Origin: Candidatus Omnitrophota bacterium
GTDB taxonomy: Bacteria > Omnitrophota > Gorgyraeia > Zapsychrales > Fredricksoniimonadaceae
DNA length: 64,000 nucleotides
Direction of reading: 5' to 3'
Assembly: GCA_028865345.1 (NCBI GenBank)
Contig: JAGWKL010000003.1
Span: 64,184 to 128,183, forward strand
This document shows positions 6,922-47,574 of the stretch, piece by piece. The translations under genes were made by a program, and so were the position numbers. Below the pieces are notes generated by a model. It saw only the letters and a list, made by a program, of their open reading frames with translations, ran no database searches and was not told where the DNA came from. How positions within the stretch are numbered: the stretch's first letter is position 1; every line of letters starts with the position of its first letter.

Positions 6922-7926
6922 ATGAAAAAGTTCACATGGGTCATGATTTTCTTATTGATAGCTTGCGCCGCGGGAAGTCAAAATGCGTTCAGCCAGACTA
7001 AGAGAAAGATCCTTTATTATCGAAATCCGATGGATCCTTCGGTGACATCGCCTGTTTTTATGAAGGATTCGATGGGAATGGACTATATTCCCGTTTACGC
7101 CAAAGAACCTTCACAAGCTCAAAAGGTATCAGGTATTCATGTGCCCCTGCAACAGCAACAGCTTATCGGTCTTAAGACAGGGCTTGTCGAGAAGCGCGAT
7201 TTGATTTATGAGATCCGCGCATCGGCCCAAGTAGCCTTTGATCCTGACCTGTTTGTCGCCCAAACGAGTTATATCGAGGCGTTAAAAACATTAAAAGAAA
7301 CTGCGAACGGTTCGGATGCTTTTCTCAATGGACAATCTAAATCCCTTTTGGAAGCCAGCCGCCGCAATCTTTATCTTGAGGGCATGAGCGACAGCGAGAT
7401 CGATGAGCTGGCAAAAACGGGCAAAGCGGATGATAGTTTGTATTATCCCGGCACTTTGCCTACGGCATGGGTCTACGCCGCCATTTACGAGAACGAGGCC
7501 TTGATGACCAAGCCTGGCCAGAAGGTCACCTTTGAACCTCTGGCTTTTCCCGGAAAAATGTTCCATGGGATTGTGGCCGGAGTTTCTCCCATCTTGGATG
7601 CCCGGACGCGTACCGTGCGTTTGAGGATCAGGGTCGATGACCCCAAGAAAGAATTGCGTCCTCAAATGTTCGGAACGGCGTTGATTTCCGTTGATCTGGG
7701 AAAGAAACTGGCTGTTGACCAGGACGCTGTTTTGAACACGGGAATGAAGCAAATTGTTTACGTGGTCCATAAAGGGAATATTTTTGAAATGCGAAAGGTG
7801 ACCTTGGGCACAGAAGCCAAAGGTTATTATGAAGTTCTGTCAGGTCTTCAAGAAGGTCAGAAGGTCGTCACCAGTGGTAATTTCATGATTGACTCAGAAA
7901 GCAGGATTGAAGGGTTTACCAAATGA
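6922..7926 (+). CDS. cusB: RND efflux periplasmic adaptor, CusB/CzcB-like
   Basis: N-terminal YYRNPMDPSVTSPVFMKDSMGMDYIPVY metal-binding motif typical of CusB/SilB, then HlyD-family domains. RBS AAGGGGGAA. Confidence 0.85.
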   Translation: MKKFTWVMIFLLIACAAGSQNAFSQTKRKILYYRNPMDPSVTSPVFMKDSMGMDYIPVYAKEPSQAQKVSGIHVPLQQQQLIGLKTGLVEKRDLIYEIRASAQVAFDPDLFVAQTSYIEALKTLKETANGSDAFLNGQSKSLLEASRRNLYLEGMSDSEIDELAKTGKADDSLYYPGTLPTAWVYAAIYENEALMTKPGQKVTFEPLAFPGKMFHGIVAGVSPILDARTRTVRLRIRVDDPKKELRPQMFGTALISVDLGKKLAVDQDAVLNTGMKQIVYVVHKGNIFEMRKVTLGTEAKGYYEVLSGLQEGQKVVTSGNFMIDSESRIEGFTK

Positions 7927-10900
7927 TTAAAAAAGTCATCGAGTTTTCGGCAAATAATAAATTCTTGATTTTGATCATCATAGCGGCGGCCATAGTGGGG
8001 GCCATTATGGCTGTACGCAACATCCCTCTTGATGCCATTCCGGACCTTTCAGATACCCAGGTCATCGTTTATTCCCGCTGGAACCAGTCACCGGACATCA
8101 TGGAAGACCAGGTGACCTATCCCATCGTGACCGCGATGTTGGGCGCCCCTGATGTCAAAGCCATCAGGGGCTTTTCAGATTACGGTTATTCCTACGTCTA
8201 TATTATTTTTAAAGACGGGACAAACTTGTATTGGGCGCGCAGCCGCACATTGGAATATCTCAGCAAGGTCCTTCCCGCCCTGCCCAAAGGCGTTAAGACC
8301 GAATTAGGCCCGGATGCAACGTCCGTCGGGTGGGTCTATCAATATGCTCTGGTGGATAAAAGCGGCAAAAATGACCTTTCCCAATTGCGGTCTTTCCAGG
8401 ACTGGTATCTGCGTTATTGGCTGCAGTCTGTTCCGGGAGTCGCGGAAGTGGCATCAGTCGGGGGATTTCAAAAACAGTATCAGGTCAACGTCGATCCCGT
8501 GGCCCTGCAGGCGTATAACATCCCTATCACTAAGGTCATTGAGGCGGTACGTCGCAGTAATAATGATGTGGGGGCGAGGGTGGTGGATTTTTCCGGCACC
8601 GAATTCATGGTCCGCGGACGCGGGTATATCAAATCCACCAAGGACATAGAGAACATTGTTTTACGGACGGATTCTCACGGCAGGCCGGTTTTGGTGCGTG
8701 ATGTGGCAACAGTGACAACGGGCCCACAGATGCGCAGGGGTGTGACTGATCTGAATGGACAAGGGGACACAGTGGGCGGCATCGTGATCATGCGTTCGGG
8801 AGAAAATGCTCTAAATGTCATCAACCGGGTCAAACAGAAGCTCAAAGACATTCAGCCCTCGCTTCCGCCGGGCGTTAAGATCGTGACAACCTATGACCGC
8901 TCAGACCTTATCATGCGTGCGATCGATACGCTCAAACATCAGCTTATTGAGGAAATGATCATTGTCAGCTTGGTGATCATTTTTTTTCTGTGGCATTTCC
9001 CGTCAGCCAGTGTGCCGATTGCCACCATCCCTGTGGCAGTGCTTTTGTCCTTTATACCGATGTATGCCATGAAATTGACGTCCAATATCATGTCGCTAGC
9101 CGGTATCGCGATTTCCATCGGTGTTTTGGTGGACGGCGCCATCATCATGGTGGAGAACGCTTACAAAAAGACCCAATTGTGGGAAGCTTCGGGGCGCAAG
9201 GAGAATTACCATGACGTTTTGTTGACGGCTCTTAAAGAAGTGGGGCCGTCGATTTTCTTTTCTCTTCTTGTGATCGCGGTGTCATTTTTGCCGGTCTTCA
9301 TGCTGGTCGGTCAGTCAGGCAGGCTTTTCAGGCCCCTGGCCTTCAGCAATAACTTTACGATGGTCATTGCCGCGGTTTTGTCGGTCACCTTTGTTCCGGC
9401 TATGTTTGTGCTTTTGGTGCGGGTCAACGAGGCTCATTTCCGTCCGAAATGGCTGTCGAAACTTTATAATTTTTTACGCGTAGGCCATTATTATCCGGAG
9501 GAAAAACATCCGGTCAGCAAGGTCCTGTTTAATTTTTATGAACCTGTCTGCCGGTTCGTGCTCAAATACCGTGTCCAGACTTTGATTTTTGCCGGAATGA
9601 TCTTCTTGTCTATGATACCGGTTTATTTAAAGTTGGGATCGGAGTTTATGCCGCCTTTGAATGAGGGGACCATTCTTTATATGCCCACCACCTTGCCCGG
9701 GATATCAGTGACAGAAGCCCAAAAAGTTCTTCAGGAAACGGACAAGATCATCCGTACTGTGCCTGAGGTCCAAAGCGTGTTCGGCAAGGCCGGGCGGGCC
9801 GATACATCGACCGATCCGGCACCCTTATCAATGATGGAGACAACCATCGTCCTTAAACCGGAATCGCAATGGCGCAAGGTCCATCGCTGGTATTCGTCGT
9901 GGATGCCCGGATTCCTTCAAGGGTTTTTCCGTCCCATTTGGAATGACCGGATCACATGGCAGGACATCATCAATGAGCTTGATGAGAAAGTCAGACTACC
10001 GGGGTTGTCGAACGCATGGACCATGCCTATCAAAACACGTATTGACATGCTTTCAACCGGTATCAGGACTCCGGTGGGGATAAAAATTTTAGGCCCGGAT
10101 TTAAATGAGATAGAACGCATAGGTGTCAAGATCGAGAACATCGTCAAGCATATCAAAGGCGCCAGAAGCGTTTACGCGGAGCGCGTAACAGGCGGATATT
10201 ATCTGGATTATGATTTTAACTCTAGTGCTTTGGCCAGTTACGGATTGACGATCGGCGATGTGGAGGATGTGATTGCGTCGGCCATCGGCGGCGAAACAGT
10301 GACCACGACCGTTGAAGGCCTGGAAAGGTATTCCGTCAATGTCAGGTATTTGCGTCAGCTGCGTGATGATATCCCAAGCCTGGAGCGCATCCTGGTGTCC
10401 ACGCCCAATGGGGCGCAGGTACCGTTGGGACAACTGGCAAAGTTGAAATTTGTCCAGGGACCGGGCATGGTTCGCAATGAAAACGGCATGCCTGCCGGTT
10501 ATGTCTATGTGGACATGGCCGGCCGTGATATCGGCGGTTTTGTGCGGGACGCCAAACAGGCGGTTGATAAGGGGCTTAAACTGCCTTCAGGGTATACACT
10601 CATCTGGAGCGGGCAGTATGAGAACATGATCCGGGTCGCCCAGCGGATGAAGGTGATCATTCCCATCGCGCTTTTTATTATTTTTATGCTGTTGTACATG
10701 AATACCCGTTCGCACGTCAAAGCGGGAATAGTCCTGTTGGCGGTGCCTTTTTCTTTGGTGGGAGCCGTATGGTTTCTTTATTTTCTCCACTATAATTTAT
10801 CTGTCGCGGTGTGGGTGGGGATGATTGCCCTCATGGGGCTTGATGCGGAAACCGGTGTTTTTATGCTGCTTTTTCTGGATTTAGCTTATTATCAGGCCAT

Positions 10901-17915: not shown

Positions 17916-17984
17916 CTTTAATTAAATCAAATACTTATAGTCCTTAGGTTAATCGATTGTTAGTTATCTTTGAGATGGTGTTTT

Positions 17985-19337
17985 ATGAAAAAGCATGCCA
18001 AACCGGAATTAGTTGCTGTAGAAAACGGTCTTTCCGAAACCGAGGAATTGCTCACCGAAATTGAAACAACCCAGGTTGAAACAGTCCCTGTCAAACAGGC
18101 CCCTGTTACGGAAGAAAAGATCAAATTCAAGAATATCCCCCCTAAAGTTGAGAAACCCGTCGAGCTTAATCCTATGCGGATCGCCCTGCTTTCCTGGGAA
18201 TCTCTTCATTCGATAAGCATCGGAGGGATTGCCGTTCATGTCACCGAGCTTGCCTGCGCGCTGGAGCGCAGAGGCCACGAGGTCCATGTCTTTACACGTA
18301 TGGGACAGCATGACCATCCCCAATACGAACGCATCCATGGGGTGCATTATCACCGGGTCCCTTATAGGGGGCATTCGGACATCATAGAAGATGTCAATAA
18401 TATGTGCCGTGCCTTTGTGACCACGGTGTTCCAGGTGGAAGATTATATGGGCGCCCATTTTGATATCGTCCATGCGCATGACTGGCTGACATCGAATGCG
18501 ATGGTATGGATCAAGCAGGGGCGGGGAAGAAAAGGGATATTGACCATCCATGCGACGGAATACGGCCGCTGCGGTAATAATTTTTATGGCGGCCAGTCGG
18601 CCAGGATACGCGATCACGAGCGCCACGGCACCTATTGCGCGGACAGGGTCATCACCGTATCTTATACGCTTAGAAGCGAAGTCATGTGGATGTACAATGT
18701 TCCTGACTGGAAGGTCCACAGCATTTATAACGGCGTCAATTACAAGCATTTCAACGGGTATGTCGATCCGGGCGCCATCAAGATGAAATACCACATGGGA
18801 CCGACAGATCCGGTGGTCTTGTTTGCCGGAAGGATGACGGTCCAAAAAGGGCCTGATCTGCTCATTGAAGCTGTGCCGGCCATTCTGCGTTATTATCCTA
18901 ATGCGAAATTTATTTTCGCGGGCGACGGCCATTTGCGGGGCGCCGTTGAAAACAGGGCCAGGCAATTGGGAGTTGCCCACGCCACCAGGTTTATCGGCCA
19001 CCAAAATGCCTGGGGACTGATCGACCTTTTTAAAGCCTGTGAGTGTGTCTGCGTCCCCAGCCGTAATGAACCCTTCGGCATCGTCATTCTTGAAGCCTGG
19101 AGCGCGGGCAAGCCGGTGGTGGCCACTGAAATCGGCGGCCCTTCCGAATTTGTCTGGCATGACGTGACAGGATACAGGGTCCGTCCGTCGCCGGATTCCA
19201 TTGCATGGGGGATCGGGACTCTGTTCGCCGATTTTGAGCATGGGCGGTGGATGGGCAAGAACGGCAGATACGCCGTTGAAAAAGACTTCTCCTGGGACGT
19301 CATTGCGGGCCATACCCTGGCCGTCTATAAACTGTAA
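17985..19337 (+). CDS. GT-B fold glycosyltransferase (GT4/GT5-like) with acidic N-terminal extension
   Basis: IALLSWESLHSISIGGIAVHVTELACALERRGHEVHVFT N-terminal Rossmann domain. C-terminal E..G GT-B motifs. Start alternatives: 17985 or 18174. Confidence 0.8.
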   Translation: MKKHAKPELVAVENGLSETEELLTEIETTQVETVPVKQAPVTEEKIKFKNIPPKVEKPVELNPMRIALLSWESLHSISIGGIAVHVTELACALERRGHEVHVFTRMGQHDHPQYERIHGVHYHRVPYRGHSDIIEDVNNMCRAFVTTVFQVEDYMGAHFDIVHAHDWLTSNAMVWIKQGRGRKGILTIHATEYGRCGNNFYGGQSARIRDHERHGTYCADRVITVSYTLRSEVMWMYNVPDWKVHSIYNGVNYKHFNGYVDPGAIKMKYHMGPTDPVVLFAGRMTVQKGPDLLIEAVPAILRYYPNAKFIFAGDGHLRGAVENRARQLGVAHATRFIGHQNAWGLIDLFKACECVCVPSRNEPFGIVILEAWSAGKPVVATEIGGPSEFVWHDVTGYRVRPSPDSIAWGIGTLFADFEHGRWMGKNGRYAVEKDFSWDVIAGHTLAVYKL

Positions 19338-19455: not shown

Positions 19456-22400
19456 ATGACCTCATACATCCTTAATGTCAATAAGGCCATGGTCCAACAT
19501 ATCCGAAAAGCTGTTTCTATAATTATTCTGGTAGCTTTTATCAGTACCTCTGTACAGTCGTCGGCCTTTGCCCAAATAGACCCCATGCCTTGGATGCCCA
19601 AACCGGGGACAATGGTGCATCTAAGCCCTGTATATACGCCTGCCTATCTGAAAGGCATTGTCATCCATCCCAAAAATCCATTTAAATTCGACTTTATCAT
19701 CTACAGGGGCGATAAGCCTTTGACCTATGCCCAGAAAAGGCAAGTGTACACTAAACTGACCAAGTATTTTCTGGCATCCTTGGCTGTTCCTGACAGCGAC
19801 CAGTGGGTGAACCTGTCCCCTTATGAGAAAGACCGCATTATCAAAAGTGATTTCGGCAAAACAGAGATGGGCCGTGACCTTTTGGCCCAGGATTATCTGT
19901 TAAAGCAAATTACGGCATCCTTGATCTATCCGGAAAGCAAAATAGGCAAGCAGTTCTGGAAGAAGGTCTACGCCCAGGCGCAGAAGCAATACGGGACCAC
20001 CGATATTCCTGTGAATACATTTAACAAGGTATGGATATTGCCGGATGATGCGCTTATCTATGAAAAGGGCAATACGGCTTACGTTATCAAAAACCACTTG
20101 CGGGTGATGCTGGAAGAAGATTATTTGTCTTTACAAAAGCATGCCGGAATAACCGATGTCGTTTCAAGGGGCCCGAAGGGCGATGAAGCCTCCCGTATCA
20201 TCCGTCAAATTGTGCTTCCGCAACTGCAGAAAGAGGTCAATGAAGACAAGAACTTCGCGCCGTTGCGCCAGGTCTACAGCGGGATGCTGCTGGCTGCCTG
20301 GTTTAAACAGACCTTAAAACATTCTCTCCTGGCCGAAATTTACGCCAATAAGGGCAGGGTCAAGGGGATAGATCAGGACCCGAGAAGCAACGAAGCAATC
20401 TACCAGCAGTACCTGAGAGCCTATAAAAAGGGCGTGTTTGATTTCATCAAAGAAGATACGGATCGATTGACCAATGAAACGATCCCCAGAAAGTATTTCT
20501 CGGGCGGAGTGACAGGGGATTATGCACAAGCCGCAAAGGAGCTGGGAGAGGCGACGATCATTCACGAGGTGCATTCCATCGATCCTGCCCAGGCCGCTCT
20601 TGTCAGGGAGGTCTTGACATCAAAGGCCGATGATGTGACGGAAGTTTTCCGGGAAGCGGCAGGCCATACGGCCTTGCCCGATGGGGCCATGGCCACTGCG
20701 GGATTGTTTAAAAATGTGCCGGCGGGCACTATCAACCCCTACTTGGAAGTAAACCGTCTTTTTAGCGAGGTCAGCGGTAAGATCAGGCAGGAGAATATAA
20801 AAGACGTAAACGGAAGGACGATACAGGGGGATTTTATAAGGCCGATGTTGGAGACTTTGGACTATTACGCCGGTGAGGCCGGTAAGCAGGTTGAATCCGT
20901 CGAGCTTTTGGTGGCCATGGCCAGGGTGTTCAATGCCATAGGCTCTGACCCCAAAACCATGGTCAGGCACGGGGCGCCGGTCTATGCCGCGTATGATGGC
21001 CAAATTCAAGCGATCGTCAACGCCGGCACCTTGCGGGAGGCGGAAGACATTTTACGGACAATAACCCCGGCCCCCAAGACCGAAGGGCAGCCCACCAGCG
21101 CTGTATTCAAGGCATTTATTGCGGCGCATTTTCAGGACATGCCCAAGATGGAAGCCTATAAGGCCGACGGAGAAAAGGTCGAACTGGTCGATCTGGGCAG
21201 CCCCGAGGTGCAACAGATGCTTAAGGCCCCGGCTGCGGTCCCTATCATCGTCCCCGACAAACGGGTCCTGACTTTATATTCCGATGGAAAATTATTGGAA
21301 ACCGCCGGGGATTGGACCAGCTATGATTTAAACCGCCGTATCGCCGTCTCTCAAAGCGGGGTGATCTATTTTATCAAGCATAAGCCGGGAGACAGGCGAT
21401 TTAAGATCATGTACCCGTTTCGACTGGATTATGAGGATTCAGGCCTGGCCTTGAATAGTAAGGTTTTGGCAAAGGTCCCCGAAACCTACCGTGATGCGTT
21501 GGTCAGTGAAGTCCAAAGGGGTTTCAGGGCCTTGATCCTGGATTCGGGCCATCCCGATCCCAGACCAGCCAATCTTCTGGTGAGGATCGCCGTTGATGAC
21601 AAGGGGAAACCCGGCGTGGAGTATGAGCCGATCGATTTCGATGCGGCCATGACGCACGGAGGAGGTTTTTTAAAAGAGGCGGTCGGCTTTCTCAACAGCC
21701 GCGGCTTAAAGCCGCAATGGGGAAACACCTATGTGTTATACCCGCGCATGCCCTTGTATAATACCTTTCTAGATTTTTTAACGGAAGAATTGGGCCGCCT
21801 GCCTTTTAACAATGAAACCGGCCAAACGGTCCTTATGCGCAAGGATGCCCGGGAGGTCGTTGCCCGCTTAAGGGGCTATCTGCAGCGGAGGCTGGACATG
21901 ATCGAAGCGTCCGGGCCATGGAACGGGCATACCGAAAGCATCGCGGATATATTCCATAAAAACAGCCTGGAAGTGTTCAAGAATGAGATTTATCCCCGGC
22001 ATGGCATCAACGGTACCGGATATAATTTGGACCTCGCTGTCGACGGGAATCATGCTCCGGCATTTTTAAAGCTGGAAAGAAGGCAGGTGGTCCAGGAGAG
22101 CGGGGGCATCAAGGTCTACAATGACGGTGTTTTAACCCTCAGGCTTACCGACGGAGCCTTGATTCTGGACCTGGAAAGGATCCCGACATCCAATGTTCAT
22201 TACGCAGATACGGCCATGGGCTCTCAGCAGGTCCAGGCGTCCCTGCATAGAAAATTCGCGTTAATCGTGTATGCCGATAAATCAACGGATTGGAACGGCG
22301 CTTTAAATAACGTTCTTGGTCTTAGAGAAGAGTTGGAACAAAAAGGGTATGTGGTCAGCAATACGCGGGTCGATTCTGTTGAGAATTTAATCGAAAAGGT

Positions 22401-23031
22401 GGAGAAGTATTCTAAGGACCAGGCCCCGGATCTGTTGATCATTGGGGCCCATGGAACACAAAATTCAATGCATTTAGGCAATGGCCCCGGAGGGTATCTT
22501 ACCTTGCACAATGTCCAACAGCTAAGAATGATAAGCGGTACGCTGGCAAAAGGCGGAACCGTTGTTTTGCAGAGTTGTTCGACGGGTAAAGGGGAAAGTT
22601 TTGAAGGCAATATGGCCAATGTTTTCGCTAAGATATTTCCACAGGCCGCGCATGTTTTCGCCCCAAGAGTGCCGGCGGGCCCAAGGTTTACCTTTGATGC
22701 TAATAATGTGGTTTCCGGGATAAAATATGACAATTTTGAATCAGGGGTCGTTTCCAGTATTAATTTGAGGACCCATGAGACTAATTTGACCGAAAGAGGA
22801 TACGATGCCGCAAAACAAGCGCGCTTGCAGGATAAGGCCATGACGCCCGGCGGTATCGACTTAAACGCCGCCAATTTGGACCTGTTGATCAAGCGGGACG
22901 GCAAGGGCATGCCGCTGCAGTGGCCAATTCAGGACCAGGCCCAGTTTAGCAATATCCAGGGTCTTGACCCTGTCATACTTTCCATAAAGCCCGCAACCCG
23001 GACACCCGTGTTTGCTGAGCTTGTGTCTTGA
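19456..23031 (+). CDS. Large secreted multidomain protein: unknown N-terminal region, atypical kinase-like core, C-terminal CHAT/caspase-like domain
   Basis: Signal peptide (VQHIRKAVSIIILVAFISTSVQSSAFAQ). GHPDPRPANLLV (HxDxxxxN) at aa 698-709 and IDFD at aa 726-729. LLIIGAHG (H999) and VVLQSCSTG (C1041) caspase/CHAT dyad. Confidence 0.85.
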   Translation: MTSYILNVNKAMVQHIRKAVSIIILVAFISTSVQSSAFAQIDPMPWMPKPGTMVHLSPVYTPAYLKGIVIHPKNPFKFDFIIYRGDKPLTYAQKRQVYTKLTKYFLASLAVPDSDQWVNLSPYEKDRIIKSDFGKTEMGRDLLAQDYLLKQITASLIYPESKIGKQFWKKVYAQAQKQYGTTDIPVNTFNKVWILPDDALIYEKGNTAYVIKNHLRVMLEEDYLSLQKHAGITDVVSRGPKGDEASRIIRQIVLPQLQKEVNEDKNFAPLRQVYSGMLLAAWFKQTLKHSLLAEIYANKGRVKGIDQDPRSNEAIYQQYLRAYKKGVFDFIKEDTDRLTNETIPRKYFSGGVTGDYAQAAKELGEATIIHEVHSIDPAQAALVREVLTSKADDVTEVFREAAGHTALPDGAMATAGLFKNVPAGTINPYLEVNRLFSEVSGKIRQENIKDVNGRTIQGDFIRPMLETLDYYAGEAGKQVESVELLVAMARVFNAIGSDPKTMVRHGAPVYAAYDGQIQAIVNAGTLREAEDILRTITPAPKTEGQPTSAVFKAFIAAHFQDMPKMEAYKADGEKVELVDLGSPEVQQMLKAPAAVPIIVPDKRVLTLYSDGKLLETAGDWTSYDLNRRIAVSQSGVIYFIKHKPGDRRFKIMYPFRLDYEDSGLALNSKVLAKVPETYRDALVSEVQRGFRALILDSGHPDPRPANLLVRIAVDDKGKPGVEYEPIDFDAAMTHGGGFLKEAVGFLNSRGLKPQWGNTYVLYPRMPLYNTFLDFLTEELGRLPFNNETGQTVLMRKDAREVVARLRGYLQRRLDMIEASGPWNGHTESIADIFHKNSLEVFKNEIYPRHGINGTGYNLDLAVDGNHAPAFLKLERRQVVQESGGIKVYNDGVLTLRLTDGALILDLERIPTSNVHYADTAMGSQQVQASLHRKFALIVYADKSTDWNGALNNVLGLREELEQKGYVVSNTRVDSVENLIEKVEKYSKDQAPDLLIIGAHGTQNSMHLGNGPGGYLTLHNVQQLRMISGTLAKGGTVVLQSCSTGKGESFEGNMANVFAKIFPQAAHVFAPRVPAGPRFTFDANNVVSGIKYDNFESGVVSSINLRTHETNLTERGYDAAKQARLQDKAMTPGGIDLNAANLDLLIKRDGKGMPLQWPIQDQAQFSNIQGLDPVILSIKPATRTPVFAELVS

Positions 23032-24012: not shown

Positions 24013-24270
24013 GACGGTTATTCAGATTTGTCATCAGCCCTGCAGATGAAATTGTTATGGAAAATCAAATGCCCGGCCCAATCAACTCGTCTTATGCGCA
24101 GCGTGTCCTTATAAAGGTCCCGGAGAGGTCTAAGATACTAGGAAAAGCTTCTGGACAGCCTTAAAAAAGTCTGGTATAAAAGACTCTCGCTTTCATGACT
24201 TGAGGCGTTCAGCTGCCGGCCGTCTGGTGATGGCAGGCTTTGATTGAGGCCGCAAGACAATCGAATAATT

Positions 24271-24343
24271 GGGCCATTAGCTCATCCGGTAGAGCATCTG
24301 ACTCTTAATCAGAGGGTGGCAGGTTCGAGTCCTGCATGGCCCA
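24271..24343 (+). tRNA. tRNA-Lys (anticodon CUU)
   Basis: Cloverleaf: acceptor GGGCCAT/ATGGCCC, D stem GCTC/GAGC, anticodon stem TCTGA/TCAGA with loop CTCTTAA, T arm GCAGG-TTCGAGT-CCTGC. 73 nt. CCA not encoded. Confidence 0.9.
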
Positions 24344-24352
24344 TTTTTGTTT

Positions 24353-25168
24353 ATGGATATCAAATCCCTGAAGAAGAAAGCCGTTGATTTCCGTCGACAA
24401 ATCCTGGAGACCCTGGAGGCCGCAGGTTCGGGCCATCCGGGCGGTTCCTTGTCCGCCGTTGAGATTTTTTTGGTCCTTTACGGCTGCCAGCTCAAACACA
24501 GGCCTGCCGATCCCTGTTGGGATGACCGTGACCGCGTGATCGTTTCCAAGGGCCACGTGACTCCGGTCGTGTACGTGACGCTTGCCAACTTCGGATATTT
24601 CTCTAAAGAAGAATTAAAAACATTCAGAAAATTCGGCAGCCGCCTGCAGGGTCATGTGCATACCAAGGTGCCCGGTGTGGAATTTAATACCGGTTCGTTG
24701 GGGCATGGTCTGTCTTTTGCCAACGGGGTGGCCTTGGGCGCTAAAATGCGCGGTAAAAATTTCAAGGTGTATTGCGTGATGGGCGATGGGGAGCTTCAGG
24801 AAGGTTCCGTGTGGGAGGCGGCCATGACCGCCGCCCACCATAAGTTGGACAATGTATGCGCCGTCGTTGATTACAACAAGGTGCAGGAGAACGGGCCGAC
24901 CAATGAGATCAAGAATCTGGAGCCTTTGGCCCAAAAGTGGTCGGCATTCGGCTGGCATGTGCTTGAGGTTGATGGGCACAGCATCGAAGCTTTGAAGGCG
25001 GCCTTTGATGATTTTAATGCCGTCCGAGGCCGTCCGACGGTGATCATTGCTAATACATTTAAAGGCAGGGGTATTTCTTTTATGGAAGGCAAATGCGCCT
25101 GGCACGGCAAAGCTCCCAACAAAGAGCAATTGGCCATGGCTTTGCGGGAGTTGATCGATGGAGATTAA
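24353..25168 (+). CDS. tktA: Transketolase, N-terminal (TPP-binding) subunit
   Basis: GHPGGSLS and GDGE..EG TPP-binding motifs. Split two-subunit transketolase. Confidence 0.9.
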   Translation: MDIKSLKKKAVDFRRQILETLEAAGSGHPGGSLSAVEIFLVLYGCQLKHRPADPCWDDRDRVIVSKGHVTPVVYVTLANFGYFSKEELKTFRKFGSRLQGHVHTKVPGVEFNTGSLGHGLSFANGVALGAKMRGKNFKVYCVMGDGELQEGSVWEAAMTAAHHKLDNVCAVVDYNKVQENGPTNEIKNLEPLAQKWSAFGWHVLEVDGHSIEALKAAFDDFNAVRGRPTVIIANTFKGRGISFMEGKCAWHGKAPNKEQLAMALRELIDGD

Positions 25169-26111
25169 GCCCGTCCCCACCAGAGACGGTTTCGGCGAGG
25201 AGTTGGTTGCCCTTGGCAAATCCAATCCCAATGTCGTGGTGACTTCCGGCGACCTGGAAGATGCCACCCGCGCCGAATATTTCAAGAAAGAGTTTCCGCA
25301 GCGGTTTTTTAATTTAGGCATCACGGAGCAGGACGTGGTGGGCACGGCCGCGGGCTTGAGCACCCAGGGCTATGTGGCCTTTGCCACTTCCTTTGCCGTA
25401 TTTCTGACCAACCGTGCCTATGACATGATCCGCATGGACGTCTGTTACAACAATTTGAATGTGAAGGTGGTCTGTTCGCATGGGGGTATCACCGTCGGTG
25501 AGGATGGCGCCAGCGCCCAGTGCCTGGAAGATTTTGCCATTATGCGGGTGCTTCCTAATATGAGGGTCATTTGTCCTGTGGACCATATCGAGGCCAGGAA
25601 AGCCACGCGTGCCATCGCCAATACGTTCGGCCCGTTTTATATGCGCACCTCCAGAGCGCCGTTCCCTGTCATTACCGCAGAAGGGGACCCTTTTGTGATC
25701 GGCAAGGCCAATGTGTTGCGTTTGGGCCGTGATGCGACGGTCATCGCCTGCGGGGTTATGGTCTCGGAAGCCCTTGCGGCCGCCGAAAAATTAAAATCCG
25801 ACGGCATAGATCTCAGGGTCGTGAACATGCATACCATCAAGCCCGTCGATGTTGAGACGATCGTCGCTGCTGCGAAGGAAACCGGCGCCATTGTGTGTGC
25901 CGAAGAACATCAGATGGCCGGCGGCCTGGGGTCCGCGGTGGCGGAAATTCTGGGGCGGTATTCCCCGTGTCCCTTGGAAATATTGGGGATCAAGGACTCG
26001 TTTGGTGAAAGCGGTACGCCTGCCCAATTAATGGTGCAGTACGGCTTGAAAGATGTTAATATCGTAGCTGCGGTCAAAAATGTGATTAAACGGAAAGTCT
26101 CCTATGCCTGA
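25158..26111 (+). CDS. tktB: Transketolase, C-terminal subunit
   Basis: Pyrimidine-binding and C-terminal domains. Overlaps the N-terminal subunit gene by 11 nt. Confidence 0.9.
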   Translation: MEIKPVPTRDGFGEELVALGKSNPNVVVTSGDLEDATRAEYFKKEFPQRFFNLGITEQDVVGTAAGLSTQGYVAFATSFAVFLTNRAYDMIRMDVCYNNLNVKVVCSHGGITVGEDGASAQCLEDFAIMRVLPNMRVICPVDHIEARKATRAIANTFGPFYMRTSRAPFPVITAEGDPFVIGKANVLRLGRDATVIACGVMVSEALAAAEKLKSDGIDLRVVNMHTIKPVDVETIVAAAKETGAIVCAEEHQMAGGLGSAVAEILGRYSPCPLEILGIKDSFGESGTPAQLMVQYGLKDVNIVAAVKNVIKRKVSYA

Positions 26112-35284: not shown

Positions 35285-35836
35285 ATGGCCCTTTTAGAAT
35301 CCGTTAAAATTCCCTTAGGCACGACGATGCCTGCCTTTGAATTAAAAGATCCTTATGGGAAATCCCATAAATCCTCCGAGCTTTTCGGCGAGCGCGGCCT
35401 GCTGGTCGTTTTTACCTGCAACCACTGCCCGTATGCCCTGGCTGTCTGGCCCCGGCTTGTCCGTCTCGCCCGGTACGGCAGGGGCATGAGGGTCAATTGT
35501 GCCGCCATCAACCCCAATATCAACCCTGATTATCCCGATGACGCTCCGGATAAAATGATCCTCAAGATCAAGGAATTGGGCATTGATTTTCCGTATTTGG
35601 TCGATGATACCCAGCAGGTGGCGGAGGCCTTCAAGGCCCAATGCACGCCGGACATTTATTTGTTCGATAAGAACAAGGCGCTTGTCTACCATGGCCGCAT
35701 CGATGATAACTGGAAAGACGAGGACGCGGTCAGGTGCGAAGAACTGAAAGAGGCCATGAACAATATGGCTGCCGGCCGGCCGATTTCCAGCAAGCAGACC
35801 CCTTCCATGGGATGTTCAATTAAGTGGAAAGGTTAA
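35285..35836 (+). CDS. Thioredoxin-fold thiol-disulfide oxidoreductase (AhpC/TSA-redoxin family)
   Basis: LLVVFTCNHCPY redox motif. Thioredoxin-like fold. Confidence 0.8.
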   Translation: MALLESVKIPLGTTMPAFELKDPYGKSHKSSELFGERGLLVVFTCNHCPYALAVWPRLVRLARYGRGMRVNCAAINPNINPDYPDDAPDKMILKIKELGIDFPYLVDDTQQVAEAFKAQCTPDIYLFDKNKALVYHGRIDDNWKDEDAVRCEELKEAMNNMAAGRPISSKQTPSMGCSIKWKG

Positions 35837-45738: not shown

Positions 45739-47574
45739 TCAAGTGACGGCCAGGGCTCCGGTCGTCGCAAAGGCCTCGGCAAATTCTTCCACCAGGCCCA
45801 GGAGCCTCTGATGGCACGCTTCCAGATCATTGAGCGCTTTAGTGCGGTATTCGAGGGATTCTTCCACCATCTGCGGGAAAAGCTTGCGGTAATACTCAAT
45901 CCCTTCCAAAAGATTATTTTTAAATTCCGTAAAATATTTGACCTTTTGATCGGTGATGTTTCTAAGAGATTTGGCAACGTCTTTCTTGAGATAATCTACG
46001 TACATGCCCAATTCTTTGATGAACATGTTGGGTCTGGGTGTGTCGTTCAGAAGATTGATACGGCCGTAGATATGGTCGGCCATTTCTTTTAACGTGGCTA
46101 TTTGGGAAAAGTAGGCCAGATTAGGGCCCGGGCAGACCGCGGTAAAGCCGGGGACCCTGGTAGTAATGTTATTTTTAACGATGGCCGGCTGGCCCAGATC
46201 ATGGCAGATACAGGCCTTGACCACAATGGCCTCGAGGTGTTTTTTATATTCTGCCTCGTCCAGGTTCAAGGCATTGAGCTGGTCGATCTTAAGCTTCTGG
46301 TACTGGCGGCTGGCGGTGCAGATCGGCTCTTCGGTAAATTCGGTATTTGAAACCAAGTGGCCTTTAGGACAGGCGCTGCCTGGACGGCCTCGCATGACCT
46401 TAAGATTCTTTTCAATATCGCTCAGGGAATCCCTTATACTGTTAAAAGGGACGCCTAAGGGAGAGACCTCGCTGACGTACAGGTCTTTTTCACCGGCCTT
46501 GGACAGTTTTTCCAGGGTGATGGCGTCAACGTTAGTGACCTCAGGACACAGCAGAAAAGGCGTGGCCCAGCCGGTGGCATTTAATCCGTAATGGGCCCGT
46601 AAGAATTTATCTTCGTTATGGGTGCCGATACCGCCCTGGGCAGTGATCTTGACCTCATGGGGTTTGGCGAAAAAGCCTTTGTTCTTCAGCTTCAGGGCCT
46701 CGTTATAAATATGATGCAGTTCGTCGGTCAGCTGTTGGCGTTTGACCCGGAACTCTTCCAGGATAGGGCCCATCAAGTACCCATCCGTGGCAAAAGCATG
46801 GCCGCCGCAATTAAGGCCCGATTCGACGCGGTATTCTGAGATCCACAGGCCTTTTTTGGCGAAGAATTTTCCCTGCACGATGGAGGATCGGAAATCGCTG
46901 ACCTTCAAAATGATTTTTTTCTTGATGTCGCCTGTGGCATCGGCATAGAAATCCTTGAATTGCTCGGCATAAGCATACAGCCGGCGGTTGATGCCCGCGG
47001 AGAACACAATGGCTGACCGCAGGCTGCTCGCGGCGTAACCGCGCAGCGCTGAAAGGGCGTCGGAAAACTCGGCAGGTAAAAGGGCGCCTTGGGTGTCATA
47101 ATTATTGCGGTCAAGCTTGGTCATGATGTTGACATTGATATCACCGGGCCGGATCGATTCGCGCAAATTTCTTTGAAGGTCCGCCTTGAGTTTAAGATCA
47201 GGGCACTCCAGCATGTGCCGCCAGGCAGCCTTGAGTACGGAATCTTCGGGAAGCATTTCGAAATATTTGGTGATCTCGCTGCCCGCCTCAAAGGGGGAGT
47301 TTTTAAGTTCTTCAAACTGGCGCTGAACGATGCGGTTGACCAGGTCCAAATACGCGGTGATGCGCCGCGCGCGGAAATCGTCATCGTGTTTAGTAATGGG
47401 GGTATAATGTTCACCCTCTTTTTCGCAATAGAACTGGCGCATCTGTTCGATCAGGGTATCATCCACCAGCGAAATGACCGAGTGAATGCCATAGCGCGCC
47501 ACCTTAATAGGCGTGTCGATCGAAAATGCGGTCCCCATCACGGGTATGTGAAAAGAATGGATCTGCTTTGCCAT
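45739..47574 (-). CDS. Conserved hypothetical 611-aa cytoplasmic protein (possible FMN/TIM-barrel-like GGIG motif)
   Basis: Long ORF with good coding character, divergent from bioB. ITAQGGIGTHNED and SGLNCGGHAFATDG motifs faintly resemble FMN-phosphate-binding loops. No confident family assignment. Confidence 0.7.
   Translation of the reverse strand: MAKQIHSFHIPVMGTAFSIDTPIKVARYGIHSVISLVDDTLIEQMRQFYCEKEGEHYTPITKHDDDFRARRITAYLDLVNRIVQRQFEELKNSPFEAGSEITKYFEMLPEDSVLKAAWRHMLECPDLKLKADLQRNLRESIRPGDINVNIMTKLDRNNYDTQGALLPAEFSDALSALRGYAASSLRSAIVFSAGINRRLYAYAEQFKDFYADATGDIKKKIILKVSDFRSSIVQGKFFAKKGLWISEYRVESGLNCGGHAFATDGYLMGPILEEFRVKRQQLTDELHHIYNEALKLKNKGFFAKPHEVKITAQGGIGTHNEDKFLRAHYGLNATGWATPFLLCPEVTNVDAITLEKLSKAGEKDLYVSEVSPLGVPFNSIRDSLSDIEKNLKVMRGRPGSACPKGHLVSNTEFTEEPICTASRQYQKLKIDQLNALNLDEAEYKKHLEAIVVKACICHDLGQPAIVKNNITTRVPGFTAVCPGPNLAYFSQIATLKEMADHIYGRINLLNDTPRPNMFIKELGMYVDYLKKDVAKSLRNITDQKVKYFTEFKNNLLEGIEYYRKLFPQMVEESLEYRTKALNDLEACHQRLLGLVEEFAEAFATTGALAVT

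Follow-up and report, generated by a model that had tools for sequence, protein, structure and literature searches.

What kind of protein is encoded by a long open reading frame (ORF) that runs from position 19456 to 23031 on the forward strand of a 64,000-nucleotide stretch of Candidatus Omnitrophota DNA (contig JAGWKL010000003.1 of assembly GCA_028865345.1, positions 64,184 to 128,183; hereafter the window)? The Omnitrophota are widespread, uncultured and ultra-small bacteria, thought to be predators or parasites. The ORF starts with ATG and specifies 1191 amino acids (aa) followed by a stop codon; its product is 100% identical to the NCBI entry 'hypothetical protein KGI24_02510 [Candidatus Omnitrophica bacterium]'. 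A reading made from the letters of the DNA alone (the sequence-only reading) had seen in it a giant secreted protein that combines an atypical kinase-like core with a C-terminal CHAT/caspase-like protease domain. Arithmetic on the translation bears out this ORF and the coordinates of the motifs quoted for it, namely HPDPRPAN (H699-N706, nucleotides (nt) 21550-21573), IDFD (I726-D729, nt 21631-21642), IGAHG with H999 (nt 22441-22455) and LQSCS with C1041 (nt 22567-22581). Our analysis leads to a different architecture: the protein is a member of a very large, Omnitrophota-restricted family composed of a signal peptide, an N-domain, variable cargo and a C-terminal tail, and, as judged from its sequence, it is most likely an exported modular effector or surface protein with a cysteine protease.

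The two ends of the protein define this family. Coverage by 119 homologues found with BLAST is restricted to aa 1-400 and aa ~1125-1190, and these segments hold a signal peptide, the landmarks of the N-domain and a C-tail of the form GGIDxNxxNL..IKRDGxG..GLxPVI..I.P. Among 8,000 candidates scored, 3,673 proteins match at E <= 0.001, and at least 592 family copies were confirmed in species-representative genomes (one genome per species). All locus-level counts given below, for taxonomy, neighbours and paralogue identity, refer to the best 80 of these at least 592 copies, while cargo, tail and motif counts refer to the 120 closest family members. The 80 loci come from 40 assemblies, with a maximum of 6 copies per assembly among those 80, and their titles are almost all Omnitrophota/Omnitrophica metagenome-assembled genomes or the generic 'uncultured Planctomycetales', plus one Elusimicrobia and one Elulimicrobium; this is the phyletic distribution that the sequence-only reading had proposed as a check. 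The papers and preprints on Omnitrophota and on giant genes that we searched held no description of the family, which is not proof of absence.

At its N-terminus the protein shows, on inspection, a basic n-region (HIRK), a hydrophobic stretch at aa 19-33 that is the sole strongly hydrophobic one of the entire chain (Kyte-Doolittle mean 2.5), and a cleavage site between AFA and Q. Based on these features we predict a Sec-type signal peptide (aa 1-39; 19456..19572, +), as the sequence-only reading had done, and the N-terminus is kept across the family, including an AxA-type cleavage motif after the h-region. The N-domain of ~360 aa follows (aa ~40-400; 19573..20655, +), recognizable in homologue alignments by the landmarks WVNLSPYE, NTFNKVWI and PRKYFSGG and 55-75% identical in thousands of Omnitrophota proteins. 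About 590 residues had previously been left without a family; for the N-domain this holds insofar as it belongs to no Pfam family, but the region resolves into the family N-domain and the first part of a further module, A, described below.

The opposite end is formed by a tail of ~60 aa (aa 1132-1191; 22849..23028, +; GGIDLNAANLDLLIKRDGKGMPL...GLDPVILSIKPA...), which homologue alignments reduce to the consensus GGIDFNAANLNLQIKRDGxGVPLP..QQDL....I.GL.PVILSIKPA...P.F..L and which 114 of the 120 closest members carry. A metagenome search with the tail alone recovered 54 ORFs that also possess the N-domain, 27 that were not judgeable and 4 genes that are split; for the 10 other segments, which have the tail only, the surrounding sequence was in every case fragmented or frameshifted, and a tail lacking the N-domain was not found on any intact ORF. 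The tail hence does not act as a general sorting tag, and its coupling to the N-domain is obligate. At one locus (L113:223-1032, +), a member without cargo has 73 aa of linker, with EHAM, NAAM and DAAM, between the last part of its N-domain (PRKYFSGG) and its tail (GGIDFN...), the 5' end of the ORF being cut by the contig. In several other loci, N-domain and tail lie in separate segments because of in-frame stops or frameshifts (L010, 5857-7176 then 7180-10323; L011, 5980-8304 then 8308-8979; also L067, L081, L088 and L120). Such interrupted family genes could be pseudogenes, assembly errors or cases of recoding.

Between these constant ends the cargo varies to an extreme degree: that of the 120 proteins falls into 91 BLAST clusters, of which 75 are singletons, and most of it has no Pfam match. 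Among the recognizable domains, each found in single cases, are Peptidase_M3, LMWPc (a low-molecular-weight phosphatase), GNAT together with AvrB_AvrC, Response_reg (a CheY receiver), LysM and PP2C. Median N-domain identity is 56% within genomes and 53% between genomes, and since divergence within a genome roughly equals that between genomes, the paralogues are old and held by purifying selection rather than homogenized by gene conversion. Tandem copies are frequent; in eight same-strand tandems (L006, L010, L014, L017, L020, L028, L053 and L062) the tail of the upstream copy ends just before the next start.

To which of these cargo types does our protein belong? An exhaustive HMMER search with its middle 700 aa, followed by local domain mapping, divided this part into three independently occurring units, A, B and C; word-index homologue searches with the cargo and with the module-A alignment returned nothing beyond the protein itself. 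Module C (aa ~925-1119; 22228..22812, +) has hundreds of homologues, and the combined evidence of Pfam, HMMER, alignment and a profile search of the PDB supports its assignment as a caspase-like cysteine protease domain of clan CD whose catalytic dyad is intact at the sequence level. The putative dyad consists of H999 (nt 22450-22452, in GAHG) and C1041 (nt 22576-22578, in QSCSTG). In aligned homologues the histidine is present in 104 of 104 and the cysteine in 105 of 106 sequences, in the contexts G-x-H-G and (Q)-S-C-S-T-G, a degree of conservation far beyond chance, so that the dyad proposed by the sequence-only reading stands.

The family to which module C should be assigned is less clear-cut. 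The Pfam model Peptidase_C14 scores 25.6 bits against the domain alone (gathering threshold 21.4) and 21.1 in the full-length scan, just below threshold; the match is thus borderline, and it covers only the p20-like half (model positions 1-129 of 233). CHAT (PF12770), the family named earlier, falls well short in this protein (11.3 bits against a threshold of 24, E 0.23), and DUF4347 (PF14252) scores 21.1 bits with a gathering threshold of 24.6. The earlier assignment hence persists as a caspase-like His-Cys domain, but not as CHAT as such. Of 27 module-C homologues, 14 match DUF4347 at E <= 0.01 (best E 4e-9) and 7 match CHAT at this level, while 4 match C14. A module-C profile compared with the PDB gave as its best match the large subunit of an ancestral caspase-6 (E 0.027), with H999 placed on the catalytic histidine of the SHG motif; the DUF4347 protein 9qpe_G was matched with E 1.2. 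DUF4347 occurs in PA0256, an Hcp-loaded effector of the type VI secretion system of P. aeruginosa (PMC8262886; structure 9QPE, PMC13323088). The caspase-like module is also found in the family members P0002, P0083, P0175 and P0215.

The modules are separated by a short sequence, [D/N]-x-A-M, that proved to be a hallmark of the family. It occurs 469 times in the 120 family proteins, compared to 29.8 +/- 5.6 times in shuffles, a roughly 16-fold enrichment, and its density per 1000 aa is 2.14 in family ORFs, 0.30 in neighbouring ORFs and 0.16 in those homologues of modules B and C that lie outside the family. Of all AM dipeptides that the family contains, 70% have D or N at the first motif position. 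In our protein, a motif scan finds five copies, all on the forward strand: NKAM (aa 9-12, 19480-19491), within the n-region of the signal peptide; DGAM (aa 409-412, 20680..20691, DNA GATGGGGCCATG), between N-domain and module A; DAAM (aa 729-732, 21640..21651), between modules A and B; DTAM (aa 918-921, 22207..22218), between modules B and C; and DKAM (aa 1126-1129, 22831..22842), between module C and the tail. The motif thus marks each of the four internal boundaries between modules, whose placement came from homology and made no use of the motif, and P0002, the closest homologue, has a copy shortly ahead of its caspase-like module. Across the family, an AM dipeptide is found within 90 aa after the N-domain in 84% of members and within 30 aa before the tail in 53%, where we estimate ~36% (from the family-wide AM frequency) and ~13%, respectively, to be expected.

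Every copy in this gene reads G-GCC-ATG at the DNA level. All four alanine codons are used in the motif family-wide, with a moderate G/C bias, which argues that it is mainly a peptide signal; for the same reason we rejected the idea of a recombination site acting at the DNA level. Internal translation starts at the motif ATGs were rejected as well, as none of them has a Shine-Dalgarno-like element at a suitable distance. In the window as a whole, the heptamer GGCCATG is over-represented (48 occurrences, against 17.8 +/- 4.0 in shuffles), and GATNNGGCCATG is present 6 times where 0.32 are expected, with four occurrences in this ORF and the others at 35690 (-) and 58758 (+).

By analogy with the autoprocessing of MARTX and TcdB by their cysteine protease domains, these linkers might be processing sites, with Asp or Asn in P1, at which clan-CD proteases, module C among them, cut after export, either in cis or in trans, and so release the effector domains of a polyprotein. 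Clan-CD peptidases have a strict P1 specificity, which includes Asp in caspases and Asn or Asp in legumain, and this matches the preferred first residue of a motif that is so strongly enriched, is specific to the family, recurs at each module boundary here and precedes the caspase-like module also in P0002; moreover, several members carry such a module. Most family members, however, have no protease module, one motif copy of our protein would lie in the cytoplasm together with the n-region of the signal peptide, and the motif might serve the linkers as a structural or recognition element instead. In addition, the candidate pocket residues conserved in module C are acidic (D945 and D1081) and a conserved Arg is missing, which does not suggest specificity for Asp or Asn but points to a basic P1 residue. 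We regard processing at the linkers as unlikely, even though it would be compatible with the reading we prefer, export of a modular protein whose cargo acts outside the cell.

Is the second part of the original proposal, a kinase, equally well founded? The proposal was a secreted atypical protein kinase, with its core at aa 600-780, that is fused to the protease and either phosphorylates a target or regulates the protease. The residues in question lie at the C-terminal end of module A (aa ~424-727; 20725..21636, +), a rare unit that, apart from this protein, is present in only three others, P0062, P0123 and P0133. H699, D701, N706 and D727 are identical in all four sequences, which share 48 invariant columns, and HPDPRPAN (21550..21573, +), the presumed kinase catalytic loop, is thereby retained as a motif in 4 of 4 homologues. 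In P0123 the corresponding segment reads HRDKRPANFLV, which resembles HRDLKPEN, the catalytic loop of kinases. The long ORF segments of the window, 26,867 aa in total, hold a single instance of H.D....N with two hydrophobic residues behind it; as we estimate a chance expectation of ~0.1, the motif alone is only weakly non-random. An AlphaFold2 (AF2) model of module A alone (predicted local distance difference test, pLDDT, 67.5; predicted template modelling score, pTM, 0.51) contains a long helix, then the HxDxxxxN loop, a beta-hairpin and an Asp, which locally resembles the order of alphaE, catalytic loop, beta7 and beta8; in an alignment spanning modules A and B, MAFFT misaligned fragments. 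K641 is invariant and located on a strand. P0133 (1945 aa) has a PP2C phosphatase domain (aa 1238-1513) behind its module A (aa 834-1120), which is the only hint, and a circumstantial one, at phosphorylation in connection with module A.

Support for a kinase domain does not extend beyond these local similarities. No Pfam kinase family is found on the full protein (E <= 1) or on the excised fragment of the four homologues (E <= 10), the module-A profile retrieves no kinase among PDB sequences, an hhalign comparison with protein kinase A (PKA) gives no alignment of the core, and a Foldseek search with the module-A model, the structural check suggested earlier, yields no match better than E 0.93. 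The bilobal kinase fold, with an N-lobe beta-sheet and alphaC followed by a helical C-lobe, is not seen either. The ~60 residues from K641 to D701 are too short a distance to accommodate alphaC, beta4, beta5, the hinge, alphaD and alphaE. In P0062 and P0123, module A stops at 'ID' and the C-tail follows immediately, leaving no C-lobe; the interval of aa 600-780 in fact spans the boundary between modules A and B, with aa 735-917 constituting a separate domain. Lastly, D729, the second Asp of IDFD, is part of the linker DAAM. A kinase at this position therefore appears quite improbable, and we would annotate the product of the gene as exported and modular and as carrying a clan-CD protease domain, and no longer as a fusion of kinase and protease.

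Module B (aa ~735-917; 21658..22206, +), delimited by HMMER and domain mapping, is also encountered as many stand-alone proteins of ~200 aa (P0126-P0150 and others), and as a fusion with an S-adenosylmethionine (SAM) methyltransferase in P0168 and with UPF0489 in P0135. Conserved are R795, D797, W822, E839, K842, Y856, D859, R875 and H915, which are accompanied by the motifs LP..NEVG.T.LMR.DA, LEVFKNEIY, GIGYSLDL, LERR and a terminal His. A match to module B was found neither in Pfam nor in the PDB.

How could a protein of this construction work? In the account towards which we lean, each family member would be exported by the Sec pathway with the same frame, a signal peptide, the ~360-aa N-domain, interchangeable cargo with [D/N]-x-A-M linkers and the ~60-aa tail. 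N-domain and tail together would carry out a step after Sec that is common to all members, either anchoring at the cell surface or passage through, or release from, the outer membrane, and the cargo, here modules A, B and C, would supply the activity specific to each member outside the cell. Module C would be expected to cleave an external substrate, be it of prey, host or envelope origin, or the linkers of the protein itself. Omnitrophota have been proposed to be host-dependent or predatory (PMC10066038), which, in conjunction with effector-type cargo, makes an effector role plausible. It is also conceivable, but doubtful, that a new, phylum-specific handle for export or surface display is composed of two halves, the N-domain and the C-tail, that the [D/N]-x-A-M linkers are processed, and that the modules are set free outside the cell or within prey; if so, Omnitrophota would make dozens of 'polyprotein' effectors per genome.

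Several observations weigh against export with a shared localization step. The N-domain has no match in Pfam, NCBIfam or PDB sequences, and its AF2 model is unusable (pLDDT 46.7); the C-tail has no match in Pfam or the PDB, and NCBIfam gives none on the full protein. No secretion-system or partner gene linked to the family was found in the 80 loci. Domains that are typically cytoplasmic (CheY receiver, cNMP-binding, HD) occur among the cargo, which would be odd for surface enzymes, although such cargo would fit effectors that are delivered into another cell. The family-wide relation of the motif to the boundaries of BLAST high-scoring segment pairs is weak, with 13.2% of ends compared to 9.8% at random and no enrichment at starts, and the acidic residues of module C described above do not suggest a specificity for Asp or Asn in P1.

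The genomic surroundings bear on two further explanations. Upstream of the gene lie genes for a copper P-type ATPase, an MFS protein, a DUF2231 protein, a TPR protein, SdpI and a GT4 glycosyltransferase; downstream, lgt follows after 48 bp, and then a tRNA-Lys(CTT) and a split transketolase. AcrB, ThiC, PFOR, PolA, glycogen synthase and a FadB-like gene are encoded elsewhere in the window, which holds no second copy of the family. We rejected a compositional or accessory island, and with it the 'accessory-looking block' of the sequence-only reading, since the GC content of 0.49-0.53 is the same as that of the flanks and the neighbours, including lgt, tRNA-Lys, transketolase, the copper ATPase, AcrB and PolA, are core chromosomal genes. 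Given this setting, next to lgt and the GT4 gene, one might think of a housekeeping protein of the cell's own periplasm, held in the inner membrane by an uncleaved N-terminal helix and serving envelope maintenance or signalling; the single N-terminal hydrophobic segment and the absence of linked outer-membrane secretion genes would agree with it. We see only a slim chance for this, as the family as a whole retains an AxA-type cleavage motif after the h-region, a housekeeping role is difficult to square with tens of divergent paralogues whose cargo is unrelated, and effector-type domains are among the cargo.

A classical polymorphic toxin, in which a conserved trafficking N-terminus is followed by variable toxin domains and a cognate immunity gene, would be another explanation for a conserved N-terminal region with hypervariable downstream modules, for the many paralogues and tandem copies, and for the effector-like cargo of some members (AvrB_AvrC, a DUF4347-like protease, a peptidase, a phosphatase). 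The gene downstream of ours is lgt, however, leaving no immunity gene candidate, and the 80 loci contain neither a recurrent small downstream ORF nor any conserved neighbour, so that the neighbourhood conservation that had been suggested as a check was not found. A conserved tail behind the variable part is not the layout of such toxins either; clear orphan cassettes of cargo plus tail are lacking, tail-only segments being those of truncated or fragmented genes, and the paralogues are old, not recently recombined. This explanation is very unlikely, and a Sec-exported modular protein with a common localization step continues to be the reading we prefer.

Some further features of the window may be recorded here. 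The N-terminal, thiamine pyrophosphate (TPP)-binding domain of the transketolase is identified by Pfam at 24347-25168 (+), right after the tRNA-Lys(CTT) gene (24270-24344), and an overlapping 317-aa ORF at 25158-26111 (+) is presumed to be the other half of the split enzyme. A 611-aa ORF at 45739-47574 (-) has no Pfam match at E <= 1e-5. Inside the GT4 gene (17970-19337, +), a 434-aa antisense ORF at 18009-19313 (-) is without Pfam match and probably spurious.

With thousands of members, several ancient paralogues in each genome, a single frame and near-unlimited cargo, the family is an obvious candidate for the interaction machinery of Omnitrophota. Moreover, it constitutes a large stock of domains that lack annotation, since neither Pfam nor the PDB has a relative of most of the cargo, of the N-domain and tail, or of modules A and B, and the [D/N]-x-A-M motif offers a simple handle on the parsing of these domains and possibly on their processing.

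Considering its individual parts, module C compares best to the caspases, metacaspases, DUF4347 and CHAT proteins of clan CD: its G-x-H-G and Q-S-C-S-T-G correspond to SHG and QACxG of caspases, but here the domain is flanked, within an exported modular protein, by a conserved head and a conserved tail. DUF4347, the nearest family of module-C homologues (14 of 27), is itself without established biochemical activity. Module A shares with protein-kinase-like (PKL) kinases a local H-x-D-x4-N-h-h...D arrangement after a helix and before a beta-hairpin, but differs from them in lacking a profile or fold match and a C-lobe, and in the too-short spacing from the putative beta3 Lys. For the protein as a whole, cargo of the type IX secretion system (T9SS) provides one parallel, with an N-terminal Sec signal and a conserved C-terminal domain of 60-80 aa after diverse functional domains. 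T9SS cargo, however, has no common ~360-aa N-domain, whereas here the tail never occurs without one in intact ORFs; a T9SS-like tail was rejected after 22 tails compared with Pfam (E <= 10) had matched no secretion-tail family, T9SS tail models included, and NCBIfam had given none on the full protein. Polymorphic toxins such as Rhs, contact-dependent inhibition (CDI) and MafB proteins likewise possess a conserved N-terminal region and hypervariable modules in multiple or tandem copies, but the present family differs in having no immunity gene or conserved neighbour, a conserved tail, several modules with a specific linker motif, and ancient paralogues. MARTX and large clostridial toxins, finally, are multi-module exported proteins in which a clan-CD His/Cys protease stands beside effector-like modules; in contrast to these, our protein shows no Peptidase_C80 match and no RTX or CROP repeats, and is far smaller. 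Their autoprocessing at inter-module linkers is a plausible, if here purely hypothetical, analogy. The layout of the family thus resembles T9SS cargo, polymorphic toxins and MARTX-type toxins, and differs from each of them in its defining features.

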